Assembly (NCBI RefSeq): GCF_001677475.2
Contig: NZ_CP015229.1
Strand: one strand, 5' to 3'
DNA from: Escherichia coli
Lineage (GTDB): Bacteria > Pseudomonadota > Gammaproteobacteria > Enterobacterales > Enterobacteriaceae
DNA length: 64,000 bases
This document shows positions 1-59,350 of this stretch, in pieces. Made by a program: the position numbers and the translations under genes. Each line of letters begins with the position of its first letter. Positions within the stretch are counted from its first letter, which is position 1. The notes under the pieces were generated by a model, which was not told the DNA's origin, ran no database searches, and was given only the letters and a program-made list of their open reading frames with translations.

Positions 1-87
1 TGGTGCGAGGGGGGGGACTTGAACCCCCACGTCCGTAAGGACACTAACACCTGAAGCTAGCGCGTCTACCAATTCCGCCACCTTCGC
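1..87 (-). tRNA. leuQ: tRNA-Leu (anticodon CAG), 87 nt, ends CCA
   Basis: Reverse complement of 1..87 reads GCGAAGGTGGCGGAATTGGTAGACGCGCTAGCTTCAGGTGTTAGTGTCCTTACGGACGTGGGGGTTCAAGTCCCCCCCCTCGCACCA, the E. coli Leu tRNA; adjacency to rsmC suggests leuQ. Window starts at the tRNA 3' end. Confidence 0.85.
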
Positions 88-3207: not shown

Positions 3208-3361
3208 GCCTAAATTAAAGCTCTTTTACTTTTTCAAAGTCCTTTCAGTTAATTGATGTTTGGTTTTATAAGTCATTTAAATACAGTTAGTTATGTGGCT
3301 TCTTTAATTGAAAATTCTTTCATGTAACTTTAAATCGATCAGGTTGCTTTCATCAAAAATC

Positions 3362-3418
3362 TGTACATATGCTTGTACATAATGTACAAAGCAGCAGAGG
3401 TGTTTTGCGATTTGTACA
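3362..3418. promoter_or_regulatory. Cluster of four TGTACA-containing repeats (TTGTACATA / ATGTACAAA) between attL and int; candidate integrase arm-type sites
   Basis: ctgTACAtatgctTGTACATAATGTACAAAg ... tTGTACAag; the same 9-mers recur near attR (54172..54286). Confidence 0.4.
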
Positions 3419-3427
3419 AGGTGAGTA

Positions 3428-4663
3428 ATGGCGCTGTCTGATGCGTGGTTGCGTTCAGTCGTTGGAAAGGAACGTGATAAGGTTTTGGTTAAATCCGATC
3501 GTGATGGTCTGTCTGTCAGAGTATCACCGAAAGGTCGCGTAGTGTTCCAATATCGTTATCAATGGGCAGGGAAAGGTGAGCGCCTTGATATCGGAACTTA
3601 CCCGGCAACTGGATTAAAAGAGGCCAGAGAAGAAGTTATCCGTCTCCGTGGTGAACTCGAGTCAAACCGCAATCCACGATTAGTCAAGCAGGCTGAAAAA
3701 CGAAAAGCTACTGAAGCCATGACGGTAGAGTCTGTGATCCGTGCCTGGTATGAAGCATATTGTGTAAAAAATAAAAAAGGTTCTGAACAGATACTCCGCT
3801 CGTTTGAGCTGCACCTGTTCTCTAAAATCGGGAATATCCCTCACGATGCAGCTACATTGCATGATTGGTTAGAAGTCCTGGAGCCTCTTAGCACCAAGAC
3901 TCCAGCAATAGTAGACCGATTGCTAATTAACGCAAAGCAGGCTCATGTCTGGGCGTATAAGAGAAAGCTCATTGAAACTCGCCCACTGTCGGATATCACG
4001 GGTAAAGATATGGATATCCGTAAAGGTCAGAAAAAACGGTTTCTGACACATGATGAAATTAACATCCTTTATGCTGCGATCGATGGTTCTCGAATGGTTC
4101 CTAAATACCGAGCCTTCATTAAACTATTGCTGCATTTTGGTTGCCGTAGTTCAGAGCTAATTACTGCTAGGGTGGATGATTTTGATTTCATAAATAAGGT
4201 ATGGACTGTACCACCAGAACGACATAAGACTGGGGACATAACAGGCGAACCGCTAAAGCGGCCCATTATTGAACCGGTTGAAGAGCTTATAAAATACGTT
4301 ATCTCTATGAACAACGGTTCCGATATGCTTTTTACTAAGGAAGGAAGCAGGGAGCCAGTTGGTCGGACATCATTGCAGTCGCTGCCTTACAATTTAATGC
4401 AGTTCGCATGGCGACGTTTGGGGTATCAATTTCCTCATTGGTCTCTTCATGATTTGAGACGAACAGCACGAACAAACTTTTCTGATCTTACTGCTCCTCA
4501 TATTGCTGAAATAATGCTTGGTCATAAACTGCCAGGTGTATGGCAAGTTTATGATAAGAGCGATTATCTAGAAGAACAGCGTAAAGCTTACTGGGCATGG
4601 TGGGAGAGGGTTGAATCGATCGTTACTTGTACTGACTTAATCTCCAACGGACAGTTTGCGTAG
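3428..4663 (+). CDS. int: Tyrosine integrase, P4-type (N-terminal arm-binding domain plus catalytic domain)
   Basis: 411-aa ORF directly inside attL; C-terminal HDLRRTARTN and catalytic Y region typical of tyrosine recombinases; SD AAGGTGAG before ATG. Confidence 0.9.
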   Translation: MALSDAWLRSVVGKERDKVLVKSDRDGLSVRVSPKGRVVFQYRYQWAGKGERLDIGTYPATGLKEAREEVIRLRGELESNRNPRLVKQAEKRKATEAMTVESVIRAWYEAYCVKNKKGSEQILRSFELHLFSKIGNIPHDAATLHDWLEVLEPLSTKTPAIVDRLLINAKQAHVWAYKRKLIETRPLSDITGKDMDIRKGQKKRFLTHDEINILYAAIDGSRMVPKYRAFIKLLLHFGCRSSELITARVDDFDFINKVWTVPPERHKTGDITGEPLKRPIIEPVEELIKYVISMNNGSDMLFTKEGSREPVGRTSLQSLPYNLMQFAWRRLGYQFPHWSLHDLRRTARTNFSDLTAPHIAEIMLGHKLPGVWQVYDKSDYLEEQRKAYWAWWERVESIVTCTDLISNGQFA

Positions 4664-7057: not shown

Positions 7058-7882
7058 TCAGGCGGTGAAAGTACCAATAAAGGTTTCTACTTTGCTGTCT
7101 TTGAATTTCTCAACAAGCAGATCACGAAATTCGTTAGCCATTTCTTCCTGCACCGCTTCCAGCTGAATAATGCGCAGAACCAGTACAGGACGATCGCCAG
7201 TGATAATGCTGAGGCGTAATTTAAACGGACGTTCTTTCAGACCTTCAAACGGAACGCATTTAAATTCAAATGCCACTGGCATAATGTCTTTGGTCTTCGC
7301 TTCGACAGACTCCATCAGGGAGCGTTTGCCGCTGAAGTCATTATCTTCAAAATCAGCGGTCTGGTTCGCTTCAATTGTGATTTTACGGATCGCCGCAGCC
7401 GCTTTGGTTGCCTGAATGGCGTCACCATTAGCATCAAAGCCCACAAGGTAGTCGGCCCAGTCTTCAATCCATTCTGCCAGTGACTTCTGGGAGTTACGCT
7501 CGCCGTTAACAGACAACAGGGCAGAGAACGGTGCTGTCTTTTTCAGTTTGAGAGTGGCGGTGTTATCTGCGTGACCTGGTTCATCAATAGTACCCAGGTT
7601 AAGCACACTGACTGCTCGCATATTATCGGCATCGATAAAGCAGCGGGTGCCTTCATCTGCAAGATCTTTAGAATAACGGGTAAAGTCATCGATGCTGGCA
7701 GTGGAAAGCGCACCACGGAAACGGAAGCGATTTAAATTAAATTTTTCCAGATCATGAATGCGGAAATTCTCAGGCAATGCCACAGCATCGGCACCAATCT
7801 TACTGATAATTTCATTAACACCCTGAGCAGAAATAAGGGCATGGATTTGATTAATTGCGGTTGCGTCTAAGTTCTGAGACAT
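7058..7882 (-). CDS. YfdQ-like (DUF2303) prophage protein
   Basis: 274-aa ORF; recalled similarity to KplE1 YfdQ; same operon as the YfdR-like gene. Confidence 0.6.
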
Positions 7883-7947
7883 AATAAGTCCTCACTATAT
7901 AAAGATATTCAGTGATGAGATAAATAATCGGTTAATTAAGAACGATA

Positions 7948-8310
7948 TTAATGACCTGCTGCGCGGAGTTTTCCGTCAGGTTCACCGGCAAGAGTCAGTA
8001 ATTGTCCCTGGTCTTCCTGCAGAATAGTCAGGCGACCACCGCGATTGACATACATCGGCGTTTCGGTGGTGTCTTCTTCGGAAATTTTCCCGCGGTTAGT
8101 CGGGCGAACATATGAGAGTTTGTGTTTGATTTTCACACGGTTCTCATCAAATGGTTCGATTTCCAGGTTGAGTGAGACCTTACCTTTGGTTTTCGTGTTC
8201 ATCACACCTGAAGCGACTTCACTGAGAACTGCGCCGATTTTGGTTTCAAATACGCCGCCGTCCAGCTCCCCGATAAATGCCTGCACATCAGTACTGCGTT
8301 CGCTAGCCAT
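7948..8310 (-). CDS. YfdP-like prophage protein (120 aa)
   Basis: Track ORF trimmed to internal ATG at 8310 (MASERSTDVQ...) preceded by SD GAGGAG; synteny with yfdQ/yfdR-like genes. Confidence 0.5.
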   Translation of the reverse strand: MASERSTDVQAFIGELDGGVFETKIGAVLSEVASGVMNTKTKGKVSLNLEIEPFDENRVKIKHKLSYVRPTNRGKISEEDTTETPMYVNRGGRLTILQEDQGQLLTLAGEPDGKLRAAGH

Positions 8311-8944
8311 TTTGCTGCTCCTCATCATATCGACCCTGCAAGGTCGGTTGGTTTCTCCACAAAACAGAGAAGAACACCTGCGGTGGCAGCCGCCCGGATG
8401 GATTGGGTTATGAGCCCGTCGTCCGGTGATGCTCTTCTCTGTTTTGTAAAAAGAGCGGTACCAGCCGGAAGCAAGTGTACAAACTGGTACCGCCAAAGCA
8501 GTGGCTGTTGTGGTGACCGGTGCTGATCTCCGGCTTGCGGTTATTTCAGACTCTCACGGGTGTTTAATTGCCCCGCCGAACAGCTCTTTTCCGCAATAGC
8601 TGCAATGTCTTTCGCGCATCAGCCTGCGCATTCACCACAACGCTGAGAGCACTTAGCCAGTTACGGCACCACACTTTGTCGCGGTTCCATAAATGCCCTC
8701 ATCGTTGCACCCTGGTCTCTTCCCAGGTGTCAAACCGAACCGCCACGCTGGTTAGGCGTCTTATCAGCATCATCATTGACTTGCACATTCCGGCTACCTG
8801 GTTTGTTTGCCCGAGCAAGGAGTGGATTGTCCCCTTTAACGTCCCCAGACCGCTAACGACGCATGTGCCATACGCCGTGTTACAACCAAATTTTGTTAGT
8901 ACCTTGTTTGTTGGTCTGGAAAGAAAGATAAAATGAAGTTGCGC

Positions 8945-8985
8945 ATTATGCAAGTGTTTTTGTTGCGAGATATGCAATTTGATGG
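8945..8985. promoter_or_regulatory. Putative OL operator/PL promoter region (TTGCG-N5-TGCAA palindromes)
   Basis: TTGCGCATTATGCAA and TTGCGAGATATGCAA immediately downstream of the cI terminator; the same half-site recurs in the cI-cro intergenic region. Confidence 0.4.
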
Positions 8986-8989
8986 GTAA

Positions 8990-9012
8990 TGAAAAGCCAC
9001 CTTCGGGTGGCT
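8990..9012 (-). terminator. Rho-independent terminator downstream of the repressor gene
   Basis: GCCACC-TTCG-GGTGGC stem-loop followed by a U-run on the minus strand. Confidence 0.6.
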
Positions 9013-9032
9013 AATTGATGAGGAGGTAAGGG

Positions 9033-9725
9033 TTAATTGTGTCGCTTAAGGGTTTGTGACTGGCTGATTAAGACCTTTCCAAAGACCATAAACCGGTGTT
9101 CATTTTCGCTGGTAATTCCCCATTCACGGTAAATCTGGTTATCAGAAATCACCAGTAGTTTGTCAGGTATCATTTGCAGTCGTTTGACATAAATTTTATC
9201 ATCAAAACCAAATACATAGATACCATCTCCATCAAACTGATTGATACTGACATCAACGAAGATGAGATCTCCTGGCTCAATGGTTGGACACATACTGTCC
9301 CCACGAACGTTGATTACTTTAATGTGATTTGCTGGCCGTCCGCCAAACATCGATACAGCATTATCAGTTCTGTATTCAATGGCATGAATCACATCAATGA
9401 CATCACCGCCCTGGATAAGGCCATTTCCCGCACTGGCACTGATATCCAGCATTTCAATACGGAATACATCCTTCACCTGCGCAACATCCTCACTAATACT
9501 GTTTTTACATACAGTATTACTTTTGAAGTCTGAGGTAAAGAGATCAGCAATATCAACACCTAAGCTCCTGGCAATATTACTCAGGGCTTGTTCAGTGAAT
9601 TGTTTCTGCTTACCTGTTTCCAGGCGCGAGATATTTGCCGCATCCACTCCTATTGCTTCAGCGAGATCGGCGATTTTCATGTTCTTCGCTTGGCGAAGTT
9701 GTCTGACTCGATTTCCTATGTTCAT
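9033..9725 (-). CDS. CI-like repressor (N-terminal HTH, C-terminal S24/LexA-type autopeptidase)
   Basis: 230-aa ORF; HTH (MKIADLAEAIGVDAANISRLETGK) and S24 peptidase motifs (GDSM ... KRL). Confidence 0.85.
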   Translation of the reverse strand: MNIGNRVRQLRQAKNMKIADLAEAIGVDAANISRLETGKQKQFTEQALSNIARSLGVDIADLFTSDFKSNTVCKNSISEDVAQVKDVFRIEMLDISASAGNGLIQGGDVIDVIHAIEYRTDNAVSMFGGRPANHIKVINVRGDSMCPTIEPGDLIFVDVSINQFDGDGIYVFGFDDKIYVKRLQMIPDKLLVISDNQIYREWGITSENEHRFMVFGKVLISQSQTLKRHN

Positions 9726-9729
9726 GCGT

Positions 9730-9822
9730 TTATTACATTTCTTTATTGCGCGTTAAGCAAATCAACTTGCGCAAAATATTTGCGTGAAATAATATGCTCA
9801 TCACGCAATATGTGGAGGTTAT
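9730..9822. promoter_or_regulatory. Divergent promoter/operator region between cI and cro (OR-like)
   Basis: Repeated TTGCGCAA / TTGCGTGA ... TCACGCAA palindromic half-sites between divergent genes. Confidence 0.5.
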
Positions 9823-10083
9823 ATGCAATCACCATTACGGAATGTGCGTAAAGCGCACGGATTTACTTTGCAGCATGTTGCTGCTGGCGTTCAGGTCAAT
9901 CCAGCGACGCTGAGTCGTATTGAAAGACTGGAACAAATTCCATCTATCGAGCTTGCAGAACGTCTGGCCAATTTTTTTAAGGGTGAAATCAGCGAAATGC
10001 AGATTCTTTATCCGGCACGTTTTCAATCTAGCCAAAACCAGAATGGGTTTAAACCACAGGAACAGGAGATAAGCCGTGGGTAA
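9823..10083 (+). CDS. Cro-like HTH regulator (YdaS-like)
   Basis: 86-aa HTH ORF divergent from cI; SD GGAGG before ATG. Confidence 0.7.
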   Translation: MQSPLRNVRKAHGFTLQHVAAGVQVNPATLSRIERLEQIPSIELAERLANFFKGEISEMQILYPARFQSSQNQNGFKPQEQEISRG

Positions 10084-10627
10084 GCATCACTGGAAAGTGG
10101 AAAAACAGCCTGAGTGGTACGTGAAAGCTGTCAGAAAAACTATCGCGGCGTTGCCGGGGGGTTACGCTGAAGCTGCTGAGTGGCTGGATGTAACAGAGAA
10201 CGCTTTATTCAACCGCCTTCGTGCAGATGGCGATCAGATTTTCCCGCTGGGATGGGCAATGATTTTACAGCGCGCTGCTGGCACTCACTACATTGCGGAT
10301 GCTGTCGCACAGTCTGCTGGTGGGGTGTTTGTATCGCTTCCTGAAATTGAGGAAGTAGAGAACGCCGATATAAACCAGCGCCTGCTGGAAGTCATCGAAC
10401 AAATCGGGAGTTACTCAAAGCAGATTCGTTCGGCAATCGAAGATGGGGTAGTGGAGCCACACGAGCAGACAGCAATTAATGATGAGTTGTATCTGTCGAT
10501 TTCGAAGCTCCAGGAGCATGCGGCACTGGTCTACAAAATTTTCTGCGCTCCAGAAAAGAGTGACGCCCGCGAGTGTGCAGCTCCGGGCGTCGTGGCGTTT
10601 TGTGTCTGTGGAGAAACTAACGCATGA
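10076..10627 (+). CDS. YdaT-like protein (CII-position regulator of Rac-type immunity regions)
   Basis: 183-aa ORF overlapping the cro-like gene; GTG start with SD AGGAG; position and size match racR-ydaS-ydaT arrangement. Confidence 0.55.
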   Translation: MGKHHWKVEKQPEWYVKAVRKTIAALPGGYAEAAEWLDVTENALFNRLRADGDQIFPLGWAMILQRAAGTHYIADAVAQSAGGVFVSLPEIEEVENADINQRLLEVIEQIGSYSKQIRSAIEDGVVEPHEQTAINDELYLSISKLQEHAALVYKIFCAPEKSDARECAAPGVVAFCVCGETNA

Positions 10628-10772
10628 ACAGTTTAACGGCAAATAACCGTTTGTCGCAACAGCTGGTGGTCAGCGTCTCTGAACACCTGTTGTTACGGCA
10701 TGAATGCAGATTACCAAATCACCAGGCTGTAAGTAACCACAGAGAACTTTACCTGACTGTGGGGGGCGAGTT

Positions 10773-10952
10773 GTGCAGGAACTTAACCGCTGGTTTCGTG
10801 ACGGAAGAGGGCTTTATGTTCATGTTATTCGTTGGGAACCAGAAACACAGCGCGTTATCTATCTTCGCAAAGACTACCCGCATGAGTGCTTTAGTCCTTT
10901 GTGGAAATTCAGGCGTGATTTTGTTGAGTGTGACGGACCACCAACACATTGA
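10773..10952 (+). CDS. Hypothetical 59-aa protein (GTG start), upstream of a terminator
   Basis: GTG preceded by GGGGGG; ORF MQELNRWFRDGRGLYVHVIRWEPETQRV...; below the track length cutoff; hand-translated. Confidence 0.3.
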   Translation: MQELNRWFRDGRGLYVHVIRWEPETQRVIYLRKDYPHECFSPLWKFRRDFVECDGPPTH

Positions 10953-11037
10953 TTCTGCCATTCCGGGACGTTACACTGTTCAGGCACCTTATAAAACGGG
11001 TGCCGGGCGTGGAAACCCGGAATTCACCAAAGCGCAC

Positions 11038-11060
11038 AACCGCGCTCTTGCGGTTTTTTT
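11038..11060 (+). terminator. Rho-independent terminator (tR1-like) containing a boxA-like CGCTCTT
   Basis: AACCGC-GCTCTT-GCGGTT stem followed by TTTTTTTG. Confidence 0.5.
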
Positions 11061-11229
11061 GTGTCATGAGCAGCATTACGCCCAAATTATGGTGGGGCGT
11101 GCAGGGCCAACTTCGGTTGGGCCGGGTTCTTTGGTGACCGGTATTTCCACCCCTGTACGTCTCACCACCAATAAGGTCGTGGAAAGCCTTGGTGGTGAGT
11201 TATTAAAAATCACCAAAGAGGCTGCCATC

Positions 11230-11775
11230 ATGGCTACGATCCCAACCCTCACTCAACCTGAAATTGCCATCGTTGATGGTCAGGTTGTTACTTCATCCCT
11301 GGCTGTTGCCAACTTCTTCTCCAAACGTCATGACGATGTACTGAAAAAGATCCGCACGCTTGAATGCTCAGCATCATTCACTGCCCGCAATTTTTCGGTG
11401 AGTGATTACACTGATTGCACAGGTCGCAAACTTCATTGCTACCAAATCACACGCGACGGTTTTGCGTTTCTTGCTATGGGTTTCACGGGTAAACGTGCTG
11501 CCCAGTTCAAAGAGGCATATATCAATGCCTTTAACCAGATGGAGAAACAGCTTTCAAAGCCCGCTGTACCGAGCGACGTTGCACATAACGCCAGCGTTCT
11601 CTGTTCCTACATTTCATCAATTCATCAGGTCTGGCTGCAGCAGCTTTATCCTATGTTGGCAAAAGCCGAATCTCCGCTGGCTGTTAGCTTATATGATTAT
11701 ATTAATGATGCTTCGGCGCTGGCCTGCCTCATAAATTTGTCGCTGAACCCTTCAGAGGTAAGGGGGCGCAAATGA
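11230..11775 (+). CDS. Rha-family phage regulatory protein / antirepressor-like
   Basis: C-terminal part of track ORF 10624..11775; start set at MATIPTLTQPEIAIVDGQVV with SD AAAGAGG; Rha-like N-terminus. Confidence 0.6.
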   Translation: MATIPTLTQPEIAIVDGQVVTSSLAVANFFSKRHDDVLKKIRTLECSASFTARNFSVSDYTDCTGRKLHCYQITRDGFAFLAMGFTGKRAAQFKEAYINAFNQMEKQLSKPAVPSDVAHNASVLCSYISSIHQVWLQQLYPMLAKAESPLAVSLYDYINDASALACLINLSLNPSEVRGRK

Positions 11776-19294: not shown

Positions 19295-19594
19295 AAAAAT
19301 TCCTTAATACTGATAACTTGGCGCACTATACACACGTTCCTGAAGAAAGCTATAGTTTTTTGATGGGGTTGAAGATGGCTGGATGTCTAAAATAAACATT
19401 GCTTCATATGTTCAACTATGCGTTAATGATTGCGTCGGTTTGAAGAACAGACGATATACGAAGTAGTTTACTAAAGCAGTTCTCATTTCAGGTGTTATTC
19501 ACTTATTCCTTCTTTGAGTCTCTCCAATTAAGTACGAAGTCGTTTCTGTTATACAAGCCATTTATGCCGAAAGGCTCAAGTTAAGGAATGTAGA

Positions 19595-19810
19595 ATGTCA
19601 AATAAAATGACTGGTTTAGTAAAATGGTTTAACGCTGATAAAGGTTTTGGCTTTATTTCTCCTGTTGATGGTAGTAAAGATGTGTTTGTGCATTTTTCTG
19701 CGATTCAGAATGATAATTTTCGAACCTTATTTGAAGGTCAAAAGGTTACCTTCTCTGTAGAGAGTGGTGCTAAAGGTCCTGCAGCAGCAAATGTCATAAT
19801 TACTGATTAA
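19595..19810 (+). CDS. cspB: Cold-shock protein CspB
   Basis: 71-aa [44 protein letters not shown]...; near-identical to recalled CspB; divergent from the cspF-like gene as in Qin. Confidence 0.9.
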
Positions 19811-20092
19811 AATTAATAGTTTGTCTGTATACGATAACGAAGAAGGCTGATGCCTGAGTGGAGATACAGACAGAGTGGTGAATATTGGATCTCTTTAATA
19901 AATAGTAAGGAGATCCAATACATGAAACAATGGCCAGCATATTTGGCAATAACTTAATCAGGAAAAGTATGCTAACCATTGTGGTGAAGTGCAGGTTTGC
20001 TGCATGAATAGTTTTACAGCAGAAGCTAACTGCTAGCATAGCAAAACAAAGTGCGTAAGTGGATGACTCCCACAAAAAGCACCACAATATTA

Positions 20093-20115
20093 AACCCGCT
20101 CAGGCGGGTTTTTTA
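20093..20115 (+). terminator. Rho-independent terminator
   Basis: CCCGC-TCAG-GCGGG followed by TTTTTTATT. Confidence 0.65.
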
Positions 20116-22683: not shown

Positions 22684-23045
22684 ATTAATATTAAATCGGA
22701 TTATTTTTAGCGCTGAATGTGAAATTTAAATAAAAAGGACTCTTCCATGAGTCAAAATCCTTGAAATCTTAAGGGTAAGATAAAAGGTCATTAGACAGAA
22801 TGACACGTTTTATTAATAAATAAAGCTATTGTTTCATTCGTGTGTTTTTCTTTACAAAAGTAATCCTTGCTATGGTTGGTTAATCATGCGTTAATGGTGT
22901 TCTGGTTTGTTACAAAATTATCTGAAGCAGTCATTGTTATAATTTTATTATTTGTACCTCTTGAGATTTCCTTGTTGGTTTTTCTCTCTGATATTTTTTT
23001 CGGACCATTCTGCCCAAGGGCTAACTTCTTCAAAAGGTAATAATG

Positions 23046-23258
23046 ATGTCTAACAAAATGACTGGTTTAGTGAAATGGTTTAACCCTGAAAAAGGTTTTG
23101 GTTTCATCACGCCGAAAGATGGTAGCAAAGATGTGTTTGTCCATTTCTCAGCTATTCAGAGCAACGATTTCAAAACGTTAACTGAGAATCAGGAAGTCGA
23201 ATTTGGTATTGAGAACGGACCTAAAGGCCCCGCGGCTGTTCATGTTGTGGCACTTTGA
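23046..23258 (+). CDS. cspI: Cold-shock protein CspI
   Basis: [70 protein letters not shown] matches recalled CspI. Confidence 0.9.
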
Positions 23259-23461
23259 GGTAGAAAATATTACAAACCATATTCACTTTAGATGCCCGTG
23301 TTGCCATGGTTCTCAGTATAGAACATCATCTTTTGATGTTTCTGACAGGAATCCTTTCGGGGCAAAATGTATCTTTTGTAAATCAATGATGATTACATTT
23401 GATAATATTTCACAATACTTAAATGTTAGCCGTCTGTCGTTAGATTTAAGAAAGTGAAAAT

Positions 23462-51353: not shown

Positions 51354-51929
51354 ATGGATTTCAGAATGAGTGAACAACCACGGACCATAACAATTTATAA
51401 TCTGCTGGCCGGAACTAATGAATTTATTGGTGAAGGTGATGCATATATTCCGCCTCATACAGGTCTGCCAGCAAACAGTACCGATATTGCACCGCCAGAT
51501 ATTCCGGCTGGCTTTGTGGCTGTTTTCAACAGTGATGAGGCATCGTGGCATCTCGTTGAAGACCATCGGGGTAAAACCGTCTATGACGTGGCTTCCGGCG
51601 ACGCGTTATTTATTTCTGAACTTGGCCCATTACCGGAAAATGTCACTTGGTTATCCCCGGAAGGGGAGTTTCAGAAGTGGAACGGCACAGCCTGGGTGAA
51701 GGATACGGAAGCAGAAAAACTGTTCCGGATCCGGGAGGCGGAAGAAACAAAAAACAACCTGATGCAGGTAGCCAGTGAGCATATTGCGCCGCTTCAGGAT
51801 GCTGCAGATCTGGAAATTGCAACGGAGGAAGAAATCTCGTTGCTGGAAGCATGGAAAAAGTATCGGGTATTGCTGAACCGTGTTGATACGTCAACTGCAC
51901 AGGATATTGAATGGCCAGCACTGCCGTAG
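51354..51929 (+). CDS. tfa: Tail fibre assembly protein Tfa
   Basis: [41 protein letters not shown]... matches recalled lambda Tfa; SD GAGGTG upstream. Confidence 0.9.

Positions 51930-58374: not shown

Positions 58375-59350
<976 letters not shown>

Follow-up and report, generated by a model that had tools for sequence, protein, structure and literature searches.

A minus-strand leader of conserved RNA modules with an STnc100-like core ahead of yfdP in a lambdoid prophage of Escherichia coli

The DNA analysed in this study (the window) is a stretch of 64,000 nucleotides (nt) from Escherichia coli (RefSeq assembly GCF_001677475.2, contig NZ_CP015229.1), and it contains the immunity region of a lambdoid prophage. 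Our subject is the leader between the putative leftward promoter (PL) and the first leftward gene, a region that is 100% identical to E. coli HS13-1 and phage PhiR63_1. The first leftward gene is yfdP-like (7948-8310, minus strand, 120 amino acids (aa)); it matches phrog_204 with an E-value of 1e-49 and is annotated as YfdP in RefSeq, and position 8311 is thus the first base of the leader. A yfdQ-like gene (phrog_210) and a gene for a YfdR-like deoxynucleoside monophosphate (dNMP) phosphatase come next. No N-like gene is present among these first three leftward genes, as the first-pass annotation had stated, and a lambda-type N/nut arrangement, with an N-like gene first in the PL operon, is not seen. 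On the other side lie the cI-like repressor gene (9033-9725, minus strand), which is upstream of PL and on the same strand, and its terminator, called by the scan at 9012-8995. The cro-like gene (9823-10083) and the CII-like gene (10076-10627) are on the plus strand.

Besides two operator-like repeats, the interval between the repressor terminator and the yfdP start codon contains about 610 nt that hold no conserved open reading frame (ORF). The repeats GTTGCGnnnTATGCAA (GTTGCGCATTATGCAA, GTTGCGAGATATGCAA; 8938-8953 and 8962-8977) belong to the direct-repeat family D4 with a spacing of 24 nt and form a putative leftward operator (OL). Similar TTGCG...GCAA motifs can be read between cI and cro, at about 9745-9800. 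The putative PL (8926-8954, minus strand) was assigned by eye and overlaps the operators; its -35 element would be TTGCAT (8954-8949) and its -10 element TATCTT (8931-8926), with a 17-nt spacer, and transcription probably starts near 8919. At the opposite end of the leader, the sequence contains a small minus-strand hairpin at 8329-8348 (the scan flags a hairpin on the opposite strand), and then the Shine-Dalgarno sequence GAGGAG (8318-8323) and the ATG (8308-8310) of the yfdP-like gene.

The leader had been described as ORF-poor in the first-pass annotation, and this description holds. Two mechanical ORFs that start with TTG exist, on the plus strand (8568-8936, 122 aa) and on the minus strand (8699-8977, 92 aa); they are not conserved across relatives, and 8311-8990 has no conserved ORF. 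ORFs have been called by other annotators, namely gp36 and gp37 in mEp460 and small ORFs in 2H10, Ayreon and PhiR40_1, which might point to one or more small protein-coding genes with unusual starts. However, these phages are near-identical and their ORF calls differ, and indels of 1, 2, 5, 7 and 8 nt between distant homologs break the frame. The length of the ORF that begins at a conserved AUG varies between 6 and more than 76 codons, and this ORF shows no conservation past the RNA motif described below; few substitutions were available for a codon-position test on close relatives. The same alternative includes a site acting at the DNA level, such as an origin, an attachment site or a protein-binding site, and the two strands do fold about equally well in silico. 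Compared with 20 dinucleotide shuffles per strand, the minus-strand leader folds at -232 kcal/mol against -202 +/- 7 kcal/mol (z = -4.30) and the plus strand gives z = -4.66, a gap of about 30 kcal/mol on either strand. Nevertheless, G-U pairs, the asymmetry of the covariance model scores and the co-orientation with tRNA genes, all given below, indicate a single RNA strand, and we regard a coding gene or a DNA site as hardly credible.

Since the helices covary, all 58 of 58 neighbouring tRNA genes are co-oriented and no ORF is conserved, the evidence supports a leader that functions at the RNA level and not as a protein-coding gene, as the first-pass annotation had proposed. Conservation follows RNA helices with compensatory changes, far above chance. 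The covariance analysis of homologs that it had recommended found covarying stems in module II, in module I', in a hairpin of module 0 and in the terminator-like stem (all described below). The Rfam scan that it had also recommended found nothing in the leader: Rfam 15 has no family there, either at the gathering threshold or at E <= 10 on 7800-9300. ARAGORN called neither a tRNA nor a transfer-messenger RNA (tmRNA) in the leader, and no tmRNA was called in the window by Rfam or ARAGORN. Two of the repeats that had been noticed are indeed there. The GGTACC hairpin corresponds to inverted repeat I6 (arms 8455-8464 and 8484-8493; 10 nt, 100% complementary, 19-nt loop), within 8455-8493. A stem of about 20 bp is likewise present, but it encloses about 40-46 nt instead of the 60 nt that had been reported; mismatches in the quoted DNA stem become G-U wobbles in the minus-strand RNA, as read from the sequence. 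Inverted repeat I1 has arms at 8359-8383 and 8423-8447 (25 nt, 84% complementary, 39 nt between them). The two repeats are not nested as had been thought; one is the terminator-like hairpin and the other belongs to a separate module with a three-way junction.

The central element of the leader is module II (8507-8641, minus strand), an STnc100-like core that we call type A and that was delimited by a covariance model and by covariation. It is a bipartite minus-strand motif in which GGUGAAUGCGCAGGCUGAUGCGC and GCCGGAGAUCAGCACCGGCCACC are separated by 24-178 variable nt. The closing stem P1 has 7 base pairs (bp), UGUGGUG/CACCACA, and is followed by the linker AAU and the 4-bp hairpin P2, GCGC-AGGCUGAU-GCGC. 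A hypervariable insert, of 79 nt in the window copy, occupies the middle, and the 5-bp hairpin P3, GCCGG-AGAUCAGCA-CCGGU, is flush with the 3' strand of P1. Pair statistics over 151 instances give P1 a length of exactly 7 bp, with neighbouring positions dropping to background. Its three outer pairs are paired in 89-100% of these instances and show 23-51 double-sided changes, and one pair of P2 shows 14 double changes. In an alignment of 65 sequences, 96.4% of the cells are paired and 10 pairs have changed on both sides, values that 0 of 500 shuffles reached; slid controls paired at 28-54%. With the covariance model R1, made from this alignment of type-A copies only, the window copy reaches 95.4 bits (E = 4e-25) on the minus strand and 11.6 bits on the plus strand, and G-U pairs occur in the module II helices only in the minus sense. 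The two 23-nt motif halves are nearly invariant across hosts of very different G+C content.

The interior of module II is exchanged as a whole in some phages. In PhiR40_1, 2H10 and Ayreon (L291, L292 and L293), 8517-8634 is replaced by an unrelated insert of about 115 nt between identical closing-stem flanks. The exchange is cassette-like in appearance, with GUUGUGGUG and CACCACAAC as linkers. Phage SfII carries an STnc100-like copy of another type, type B, at the position of module II (L002 2682-2805). Within the window itself, R1 gives a weak match at 19978-20088 (plus strand, 19.7 bits, E about 8e-4), which reads AUUGUGGUGAA-GUGCAGGUUUGCUGCAU...CACCACAAU. It has no 3' hairpin, lies in the 3' untranslated region (3'UTR) of a cold-shock-protein gene (19595-19810) and is followed by an intrinsic terminator at about 20096-20115; from its sequence, it may represent a further subfamily.

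Module II is widespread. We counted at least 271 distinct phage or prophage instances in Gamma- and Betaproteobacteria. Exact-pattern scans of IMG/VR, one for either motif half, matched at least 120 contigs each. Among 100,044 species-representative genomes, the 5' half occurs in 72 stretches, almost all from Gamma- and Betaproteobacteria, including Enterobacterales, Aeromonas, Pseudomonas, Halomonadaceae, Janthinobacterium, Pandoraea, Achromobacter and Acidovorax. The 135-nt variant of the window is found in 844 of 5,426 complete E. coli genomes (about 16%), with 236 places on plasmids, and is annotated in none of them. When loci were oriented by the motif, 25 of 128 instances had tRNA genes called by ARAGORN no more than 1.5 kb away, and every one of these 58 tRNAs was on the motif strand; in some loci a true tRNA begins 5 nt past module II. 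Because of this co-orientation, the G-U pairs and the asymmetry of the R1 scores, the RNA sense is the minus strand of the window, which is the direction of PL.

The neighbours of 194 type-A instances were surveyed. The commonest same-strand genes downstream encode holin, endolysin and Rz, and those upstream encode Q-like, NinG and RusA proteins or a CI-like repressor, the last in 26 related loci. Module II thus takes up noncoding positions close to the promoters of the two main regulated operons, in the PL leader and in the late leader, and it also occurs in phage tRNA arrays. In several relatives it directly follows a promoter-like sequence and stands ahead of terminators. Some copies also stand alone, with a terminator of their own and without a gene further downstream in the unit.

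Which known RNA does module II resemble? The STnc100 consensus reads caUGGUG-AAU-CCCCCuGuGCGGaGGGG...CACCGGGAGGCACCCGG-CACCAug, followed by a tail and a terminator, and its 3' hairpin CCGGGAGGCACCCGG stands directly before CACCAug. Module II has this core architecture: both RNAs share the GGUG/CACC closing stem, the AAU linker, a short hairpin, a variable middle and a flush 5-bp hairpin. The hairpins themselves differ, being GCGC-AGGCUGAU-GCGC and GCCGG-AGAUCAGCA in module II and CCCCC-UGUGCG-GGGGG and CCGGG-AGGCA-CCCGG in STnc100. Two copies bridge the groups. The Klebsiella phage Magnus copy scores 52.9 bits with the Rfam STnc100 model, above its gathering threshold of 47 bits, and R1 aligns the same STnc100 in register (21.5 bits, E = 2e-6). 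The copy of a P1-like plasmid (L003 3322-3446) scores 37.8 bits with the Rfam model, whose match spans 3324-3444 and is below the threshold, and 32 bits with the type-A model. A 2026 preprint reports a structural relationship of STnc100 to PasD1 and PasD2 (bioRxiv 10.64898/2026.05.13.724894); these Hfq-dependent RNAs belong to lambdoid prophages of Salmonella and pathogenic E. coli. More than 98% of PasD genes have a Q antiterminator gene within 10 kb, and many type-A copies share the location downstream of Q. PasD is an abundant Hfq-dependent small RNA (sRNA) of lambdoid prophages of enteropathogenic E. coli (EPEC) that was validated by Northern blotting and has many RIL-seq partners; its function is unknown (PMC8550237). 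Judging from sequence and structure, module II is best filed as a new and far more widespread subfamily of STnc100/PasD-type prophage sRNAs. A full-text search of openly accessible literature for the motif sequences gave no match.

Module II is followed by a single-stranded tail of 13 nt, AGCCACUGCUUUG (8494-8506), and by a terminator-like hairpin, GCGGUACCAG...CUGGUACCGC and then UCUUUUU (8447-8493, minus strand; repeat I6), whose G+C-rich stem has 10 bp. Among relatives, the sequence that follows P1 is rich in A and C, poor in G and leads to a terminator, and in 55 of 189 instances a strict detector called a terminator no more than 200 nt past module II. The hairpin and U-run are kept, with a covarying stem, before the yfdP homologs in L107, L158, L080 and L224. 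The stem of L107 carries compensatory differences (GGCGGCGUC.../...GACGCCGC-ACUUUUUU), and L158 and L080/L224 have comparable stems. The whole order is preserved in these distant relatives: module II, tail, hairpin with U-run, module I' and the yfdP homolog. A similar layout recurs in L012, L037, L044 and L064, where the U-tract of an intrinsic terminator leads within 0-8 nt to a long 'CACAAC...' hairpin, as 8447-8493 and 8354-8452 do in the window. Such a gap leaves no room for a promoter, so these hairpin modules would be made only by read-through.

The reading that we prefer, with a probability of roughly 0.5, is that the leader is a PL-driven, terminator-bounded STnc100-like sRNA acting in trans, followed by a structured 5' untranslated region (5'UTR) of yfdP. 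A minus-strand noncoding unit of exchangeable conserved RNA modules would be transcribed from PL through block A, module 0, module I, module II (8641-8507), the 13-nt tail and the hairpin with its U-tract (8493-8447), and most transcripts would end at 8447-8454. The released STnc100/PasD-like RNA would be about 470 nt long as made, or about 195 nt if it is trimmed to module II, tail and terminator. Its action would be in trans, and base pairing as an sRNA associated with Hfq is the most likely mode. Read-through transcripts alone would continue to module I' (8452-8354), the presumed structured 5'UTR, and to yfdP. Of the three options that the first-pass annotation had offered for an RNA here, the sRNA is the best fit, given the core architecture, the links between the models, and the tail with its terminator-like hairpin. 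Precedents for such a layout are known. Lambda 6S RNA, StxS and DicF are promoter-proximal noncoding RNAs that come from the first terminator of an operon or from early operons and act as sRNAs; 6S RNA and StxS are made from PR', which is constitutive in lysogens, and DicF from the dicB operon. The leader resembles them in placing a noncoding RNA near the promoter and ahead of genes that depend on read-through; no sequence relation was seen, and no comparison aimed at one was made.

Several points weigh against this reading. The Rfam model of STnc100 (RF02076) does not match the window copy at E <= 10 on 7800-9300 or at the gathering threshold in the whole window, and the relationship is argued from shared architecture, bridging copies and our own model. 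Module II of the window lies in the PL leader behind about 280 nt of other modules, whereas STnc100 and PasD lie near Q, and the PL leader is repressed in lysogens. PL was not called by a consensus promoter scan because it matches only 7 of 12 consensus positions. The hairpin at 8447-8493, a predicted terminator, was missed by the terminator scan because of its 19-nt loop. Instances of module II were fetched by exact match to one motif half, which inflates their apparent conservation. The tail at 8494-8506 is a candidate seed region by analogy with STnc100/PasD, and Hfq binding is likewise predicted. The loops GCUGAU and AUCAGC are complementary yet invariant; a kissing contact between them is conceivable, and invariant loops give it no support from covariation. 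No counterpart is known for modules 0, I and I', and the reading does not explain them. Finally, all that is said here on the function of the leader is drawn from sequence and models alone.

If the preferred reading is true, annotation overlooks an RNA element that is very common: it occurs in about 16% of complete E. coli genomes, on P1-like plasmids and in prophages of hosts that range from Enterobacterales to Burkholderiales. A structure model and a tie to the experimentally validated STnc100/PasD group would become available for it, and the group would reach far beyond pathogenic Escherichia and Shigella. The early-left layout of an N-less phage would be a noncoding RNA unit, a terminator and then the first gene. 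Two testable questions would follow: what allows transcription to reach yfdP, and whether the leader RNA is itself a regulator.

A rival explanation is that the folded leader RNA, module II above all, is a cis-acting antiterminator or anti-Rho element resembling put, which would modify RNA polymerase or block Rho so that transcription passes the terminator at 8447-8493 and arrives at yfdP and the remaining early-left genes. The first-pass annotation had named a put-like element as an option. As in phage HK022 with its putL and putR sites, a structured RNA lies in the early leader of an N-less lambdoid phage, upstream of terminators; no N-like gene adjoins PL, and the conserved terminator-like hairpin between the RNA modules and the first gene leaves a cis role open. 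The relatives in which module II directly follows a promoter-like sequence are also compatible with such a role, and its near-invariant 23-nt halves in hosts of differing G+C suggest a conserved host machine such as RNA polymerase. Furthermore, the leader RNA is G-rich and C-poor over 8575-8800 and would be a poor substrate for Rho. However, a blastn-short comparison of window 8251-9040 with the HK022 immunity region gave a best E-value of about 1, that is, no similarity. The put RNA consists of two adjacent stem-loops of about 70 nt that begin at +3 of the PL transcript (PMC9378689), whereas module II is a three-helix junction about 280 nt downstream of the inferred start and not at the 5' end of the transcript. 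HK022 carries put in both the PL and PR operons; module II has a single copy, with none downstream of PR, and the only other R1 match in the 64 kb (19978-20088) is outside the PR operon. The module is also common downstream of Q genes and in tRNA arrays of lytic phages, where a put-like function would be redundant, and its closest known relatives are trans-acting Hfq sRNAs. We therefore consider the put-like explanation unlikely.

Module I' (8354-8452, minus strand), defined by a consensus fold and covariation, is a three-way junction closed by a stem of about 20 bp. Its first arm, AC-GGGCUCAUAACCC-AAUC, contains at 8405-8417 a hairpin like an anticodon stem-loop, and its second arm is a variable hairpin, GCGGCUGCCACCGC in the window. 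When 10 homologs were folded together, the consensus contained 39 pairs, and compensatory double changes were seen at 8 of these. The stem around AC-GGGCUCAUAACCC-AAUC is CCGGA/UCCGG in the window and covaries elsewhere (CCGGGCG/CGCCCGG, CCUGAUG/CAUCAGG, CGUA/UACG and CGUG/CACG). The family is present in P1 and at other loci, where the stem that encloses the hairpin covaries too. In the initiator tRNA of E. coli, the anticodon stem-loop has exactly the sequence of the 13-mer GGGCUCAUAACCC, which forms three G-C pairs around the loop CUCAUAA; the identity was checked by recovering the initiator tRNA at 100% identity, in four copies per genome. By its sequence, the hairpin may be either a functional mimic or a relic.

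This hairpin raises the possibility that the modules are tRNA or tmRNA mimics, which would be processed by tRNA enzymes and would serve as decoys or regulators of translation or of tRNA-targeting defence. In enteric bacteria, VapC toxins cut initiator tRNA in its anticodon loop, and phages are known to encode tRNAs that escape anticodon nucleases. Module II shares with tRNA its helix lengths of 7, 4 and 5 bp, their connectivity and the stacking of the 5-bp stem on the 7-bp stem. It is found within tRNA arrays, at times with a genuine tRNA 5 nt away, and the exact initiator anticodon stem-loop is set in the covarying scaffold of module I'. Also counted here are the T-arm inserts in module I, the tRNA-like gene of L110 and the tag-like mini-ORFs of related loci, which are described below. 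On the other side, neither Rfam nor ARAGORN matched a tRNA in the leader. No CCA is conserved, NCCA following the stem in only 8 of 151 instances, and the 3:70 pair of module II is U-A and not G-U. An anticodon-like arm is no more frequent in the insert than in shuffled controls (26 of 163 against 25), and the loops AGGCUGAU and AGAUCAGCA are unlike canonical D or T loops; activity towards enzymes or as a decoy is a prediction. A cloverleaf reading of module II was rejected, as the variable insert has no conserved closing helix and NCCA is unconserved. Overall, mimicry as the explanation of this leader appears quite unlikely.

A broader version deserves somewhat more credit, tentative as it is. 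Type A and its companion modules may form an undescribed, Proteobacteria-wide phage toolkit of tRNA and tmRNA mimics that is co-transcribed with phage tRNAs. Its elements would be the 7/4/5 junction, the initiator anticodon hairpin and the tag-like mini-ORFs in P1 and related phages. Such a toolkit would manipulate host translation or RNA polymerase, or would decoy tRNA-targeting nucleases. If the preferred reading of the leader is true, the initiator-tRNA-like hairpin and the strict association with tRNA arrays suggest that tRNA mimicry may be a widespread phage strategy.

The tag-like mini-ORFs are absent from the window. At 28 loci, a 10-codon mini-ORF similar to the tmRNA tag template lies upstream of modules I and II. 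Examples are L009 5803-5904 (the 'dicF-like region' of P1), L006 at about 2190-2260 (phage swi2) and L005 at about 2240-2300 (Klebsiella phage Magnus). The peptides ANDDLMMVAA*, ANEEMYLAVA* and ANDDVVLMAA*, together with six variants, compare with ANDENYALAA* of E. coli. The mini-ORF is preceded by AUAAAU-GCA-AAC as in ssrA, and weak Rfam matches to tmRNA and tmRNA_permuted were obtained. A census in 2014 listed tmRNA only in mycobacteriophages and Bacillus phage G (PMC4131195). We found no prior description in the literature on phage tmRNA, P1 ban transcription or initiator-tRNA mimics.

YrlA (RF02553) was compared as another modular noncoding RNA with a long closing stem and tRNA-like parts, and YrlA-related sequences occur in phages (PMC4201824). 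It was rejected, because its model has no match on the modules and matches weakly at just one place, where genuine tRNA genes lie. What is tRNA-like in the present modules is an anticodon-like hairpin and the 7/4/5 junction, not D and T arms. No Ro-binding motif GNCGAAN0-1G was seen by eye in the leader, and no rsr (Ro60) gene was seen among the surveyed neighbours. E. coli has no Ro60/Rsr.

The upstream part of the leader consists of three more blocks on the minus strand. Block A (8802-8895) is the 5' block and is also present in Klebsiella phage SopranoGao. Module 0 (8709-8801) contains GGUAGCCGGAAUGUGCAAG, a variable hairpin, ...ACCAGCGUGGCGGUUCGGUUUGACA and the hairpin CACCUGGGAAGAGACCAGGGUG (8708-8729). 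It was aligned in 24 distinct loci, with frame-breaking indels between homologs, and its last hairpin covaries (CCUGG/CCAGG, CCUCG/CGAGG and GCCGG/CCGGC). Module 0 and block A are conserved in at least 24 loci including P1, where the segment between tRNA-Ile and ban is 79% identical to them. A long bulged stem, CAACGAUGAGGGCA / UGCUCUCAGCGUUG, that encloses about 42 nt makes up module I (8638-8708), which ends 2-3 nt before module II. The stem at this position is highly diverse in sequence among relatives. A first metric did not separate real from shuffled arms, and duplex energies were used instead: a duplex of -18 kcal/mol or lower was found in 119 of 175 instances, and after shuffling of the arms in 21 of 175. 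Among other phages, tRNA-like sequences with a T-arm are frequent inserts within this stem. At the module I position of L110, a viral contig of high G+C content, ARAGORN called a 98-nt tRNA-like gene (about 7431-7528) as tRNA-Pro; it has an oversized anticodon loop and an extended acceptor stem and ends 3 nt before module II. A boxA-like sequence, UGCUCUUU (UGCUCU), in the 3' arm of module I was judged to be a coincidence, since it is not conserved outside the enteric copies.

In P1-like plasmids, the matching pieces are unannotated DNA beside tRNA genes inside the ban operon, which is controlled by the C1 repressor and has the order Pban, 'dicF-like region', tRNA-Asn, tRNA-Thr, further genes, tRNA-Ile and ban. 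This operon mixes tRNAs, mRNAs and the present modules, and stems of 14-25 bp flank its units. The leader might hold processing or insulating signals, namely RNase III sites in the long stems and an RNase P or RNase E site in the tRNA-shaped module, which would divide the early transcript into units and give the yfdP mRNA a stable 5' end, with no trans-acting product. Long hairpins do lie directly after terminators repeatedly, and the lambda N leader, the T7 early region and dicF of the Qin prophage are processed in this way. Processing by itself would not explain loops that are near-invariant across Beta- and Gammaproteobacteria, nor the stand-alone terminated copies without a downstream gene, and we find this explanation improbable.

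The pieces of the leader also occur separately (8250-8495, 8345-8647, 8506-8654 and 8780-8891). They are found in thousands of E. coli genomes and in phages including mEp460, SfII, SfV, cdtI and Stx2c phages, in lytic phages of Klebsiella, Salmonella and Escherichia, and in P1. The modules combine freely: across 189 instances of module II, module 0 is upstream in 20, the initiator-like hairpin is nearby in 33, and a tmRNA-tag-like element is upstream in 14. Such mosaicism, with the module II interior swapped between the same flanks, could be expected of functionless debris, namely decayed tRNA, tmRNA and sRNA cassettes or recombination linkers in the noncoding slots of mosaic phages. Debris would not preserve helices by compensatory changes, keep motif halves identical in hosts of very different G+C or maintain a strict orientation relative to tRNA genes, and its likelihood is therefore very small.

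The window contains further RNA elements outside the leader. Rfam matches above the threshold to isrK (10984-11060, plus strand) and C4 antisense RNA (11085-11172, plus strand) fall within a 383-aa mechanical ORF (10624-11775), whose counterpart in mEp460 is annotated as 'antirepressor/transcriptional regulator'. These matches suggest a P1/P7-type c4-ant immunity module in the PR operon, in which case part of the 'ORF' would really be RNA. A tRNA-Leu at the very edge of the window (1-87, minus strand) is possibly the attachment site of the prophage. Other Rfam matches are two cspA-thermoregulator-like leaders, IS009 and three naRNA4 (REP-like) elements; the coordinates of the remaining matches are 227-309, 19434-19873, 22889-23304, 51697-51895 and 59150-59329.

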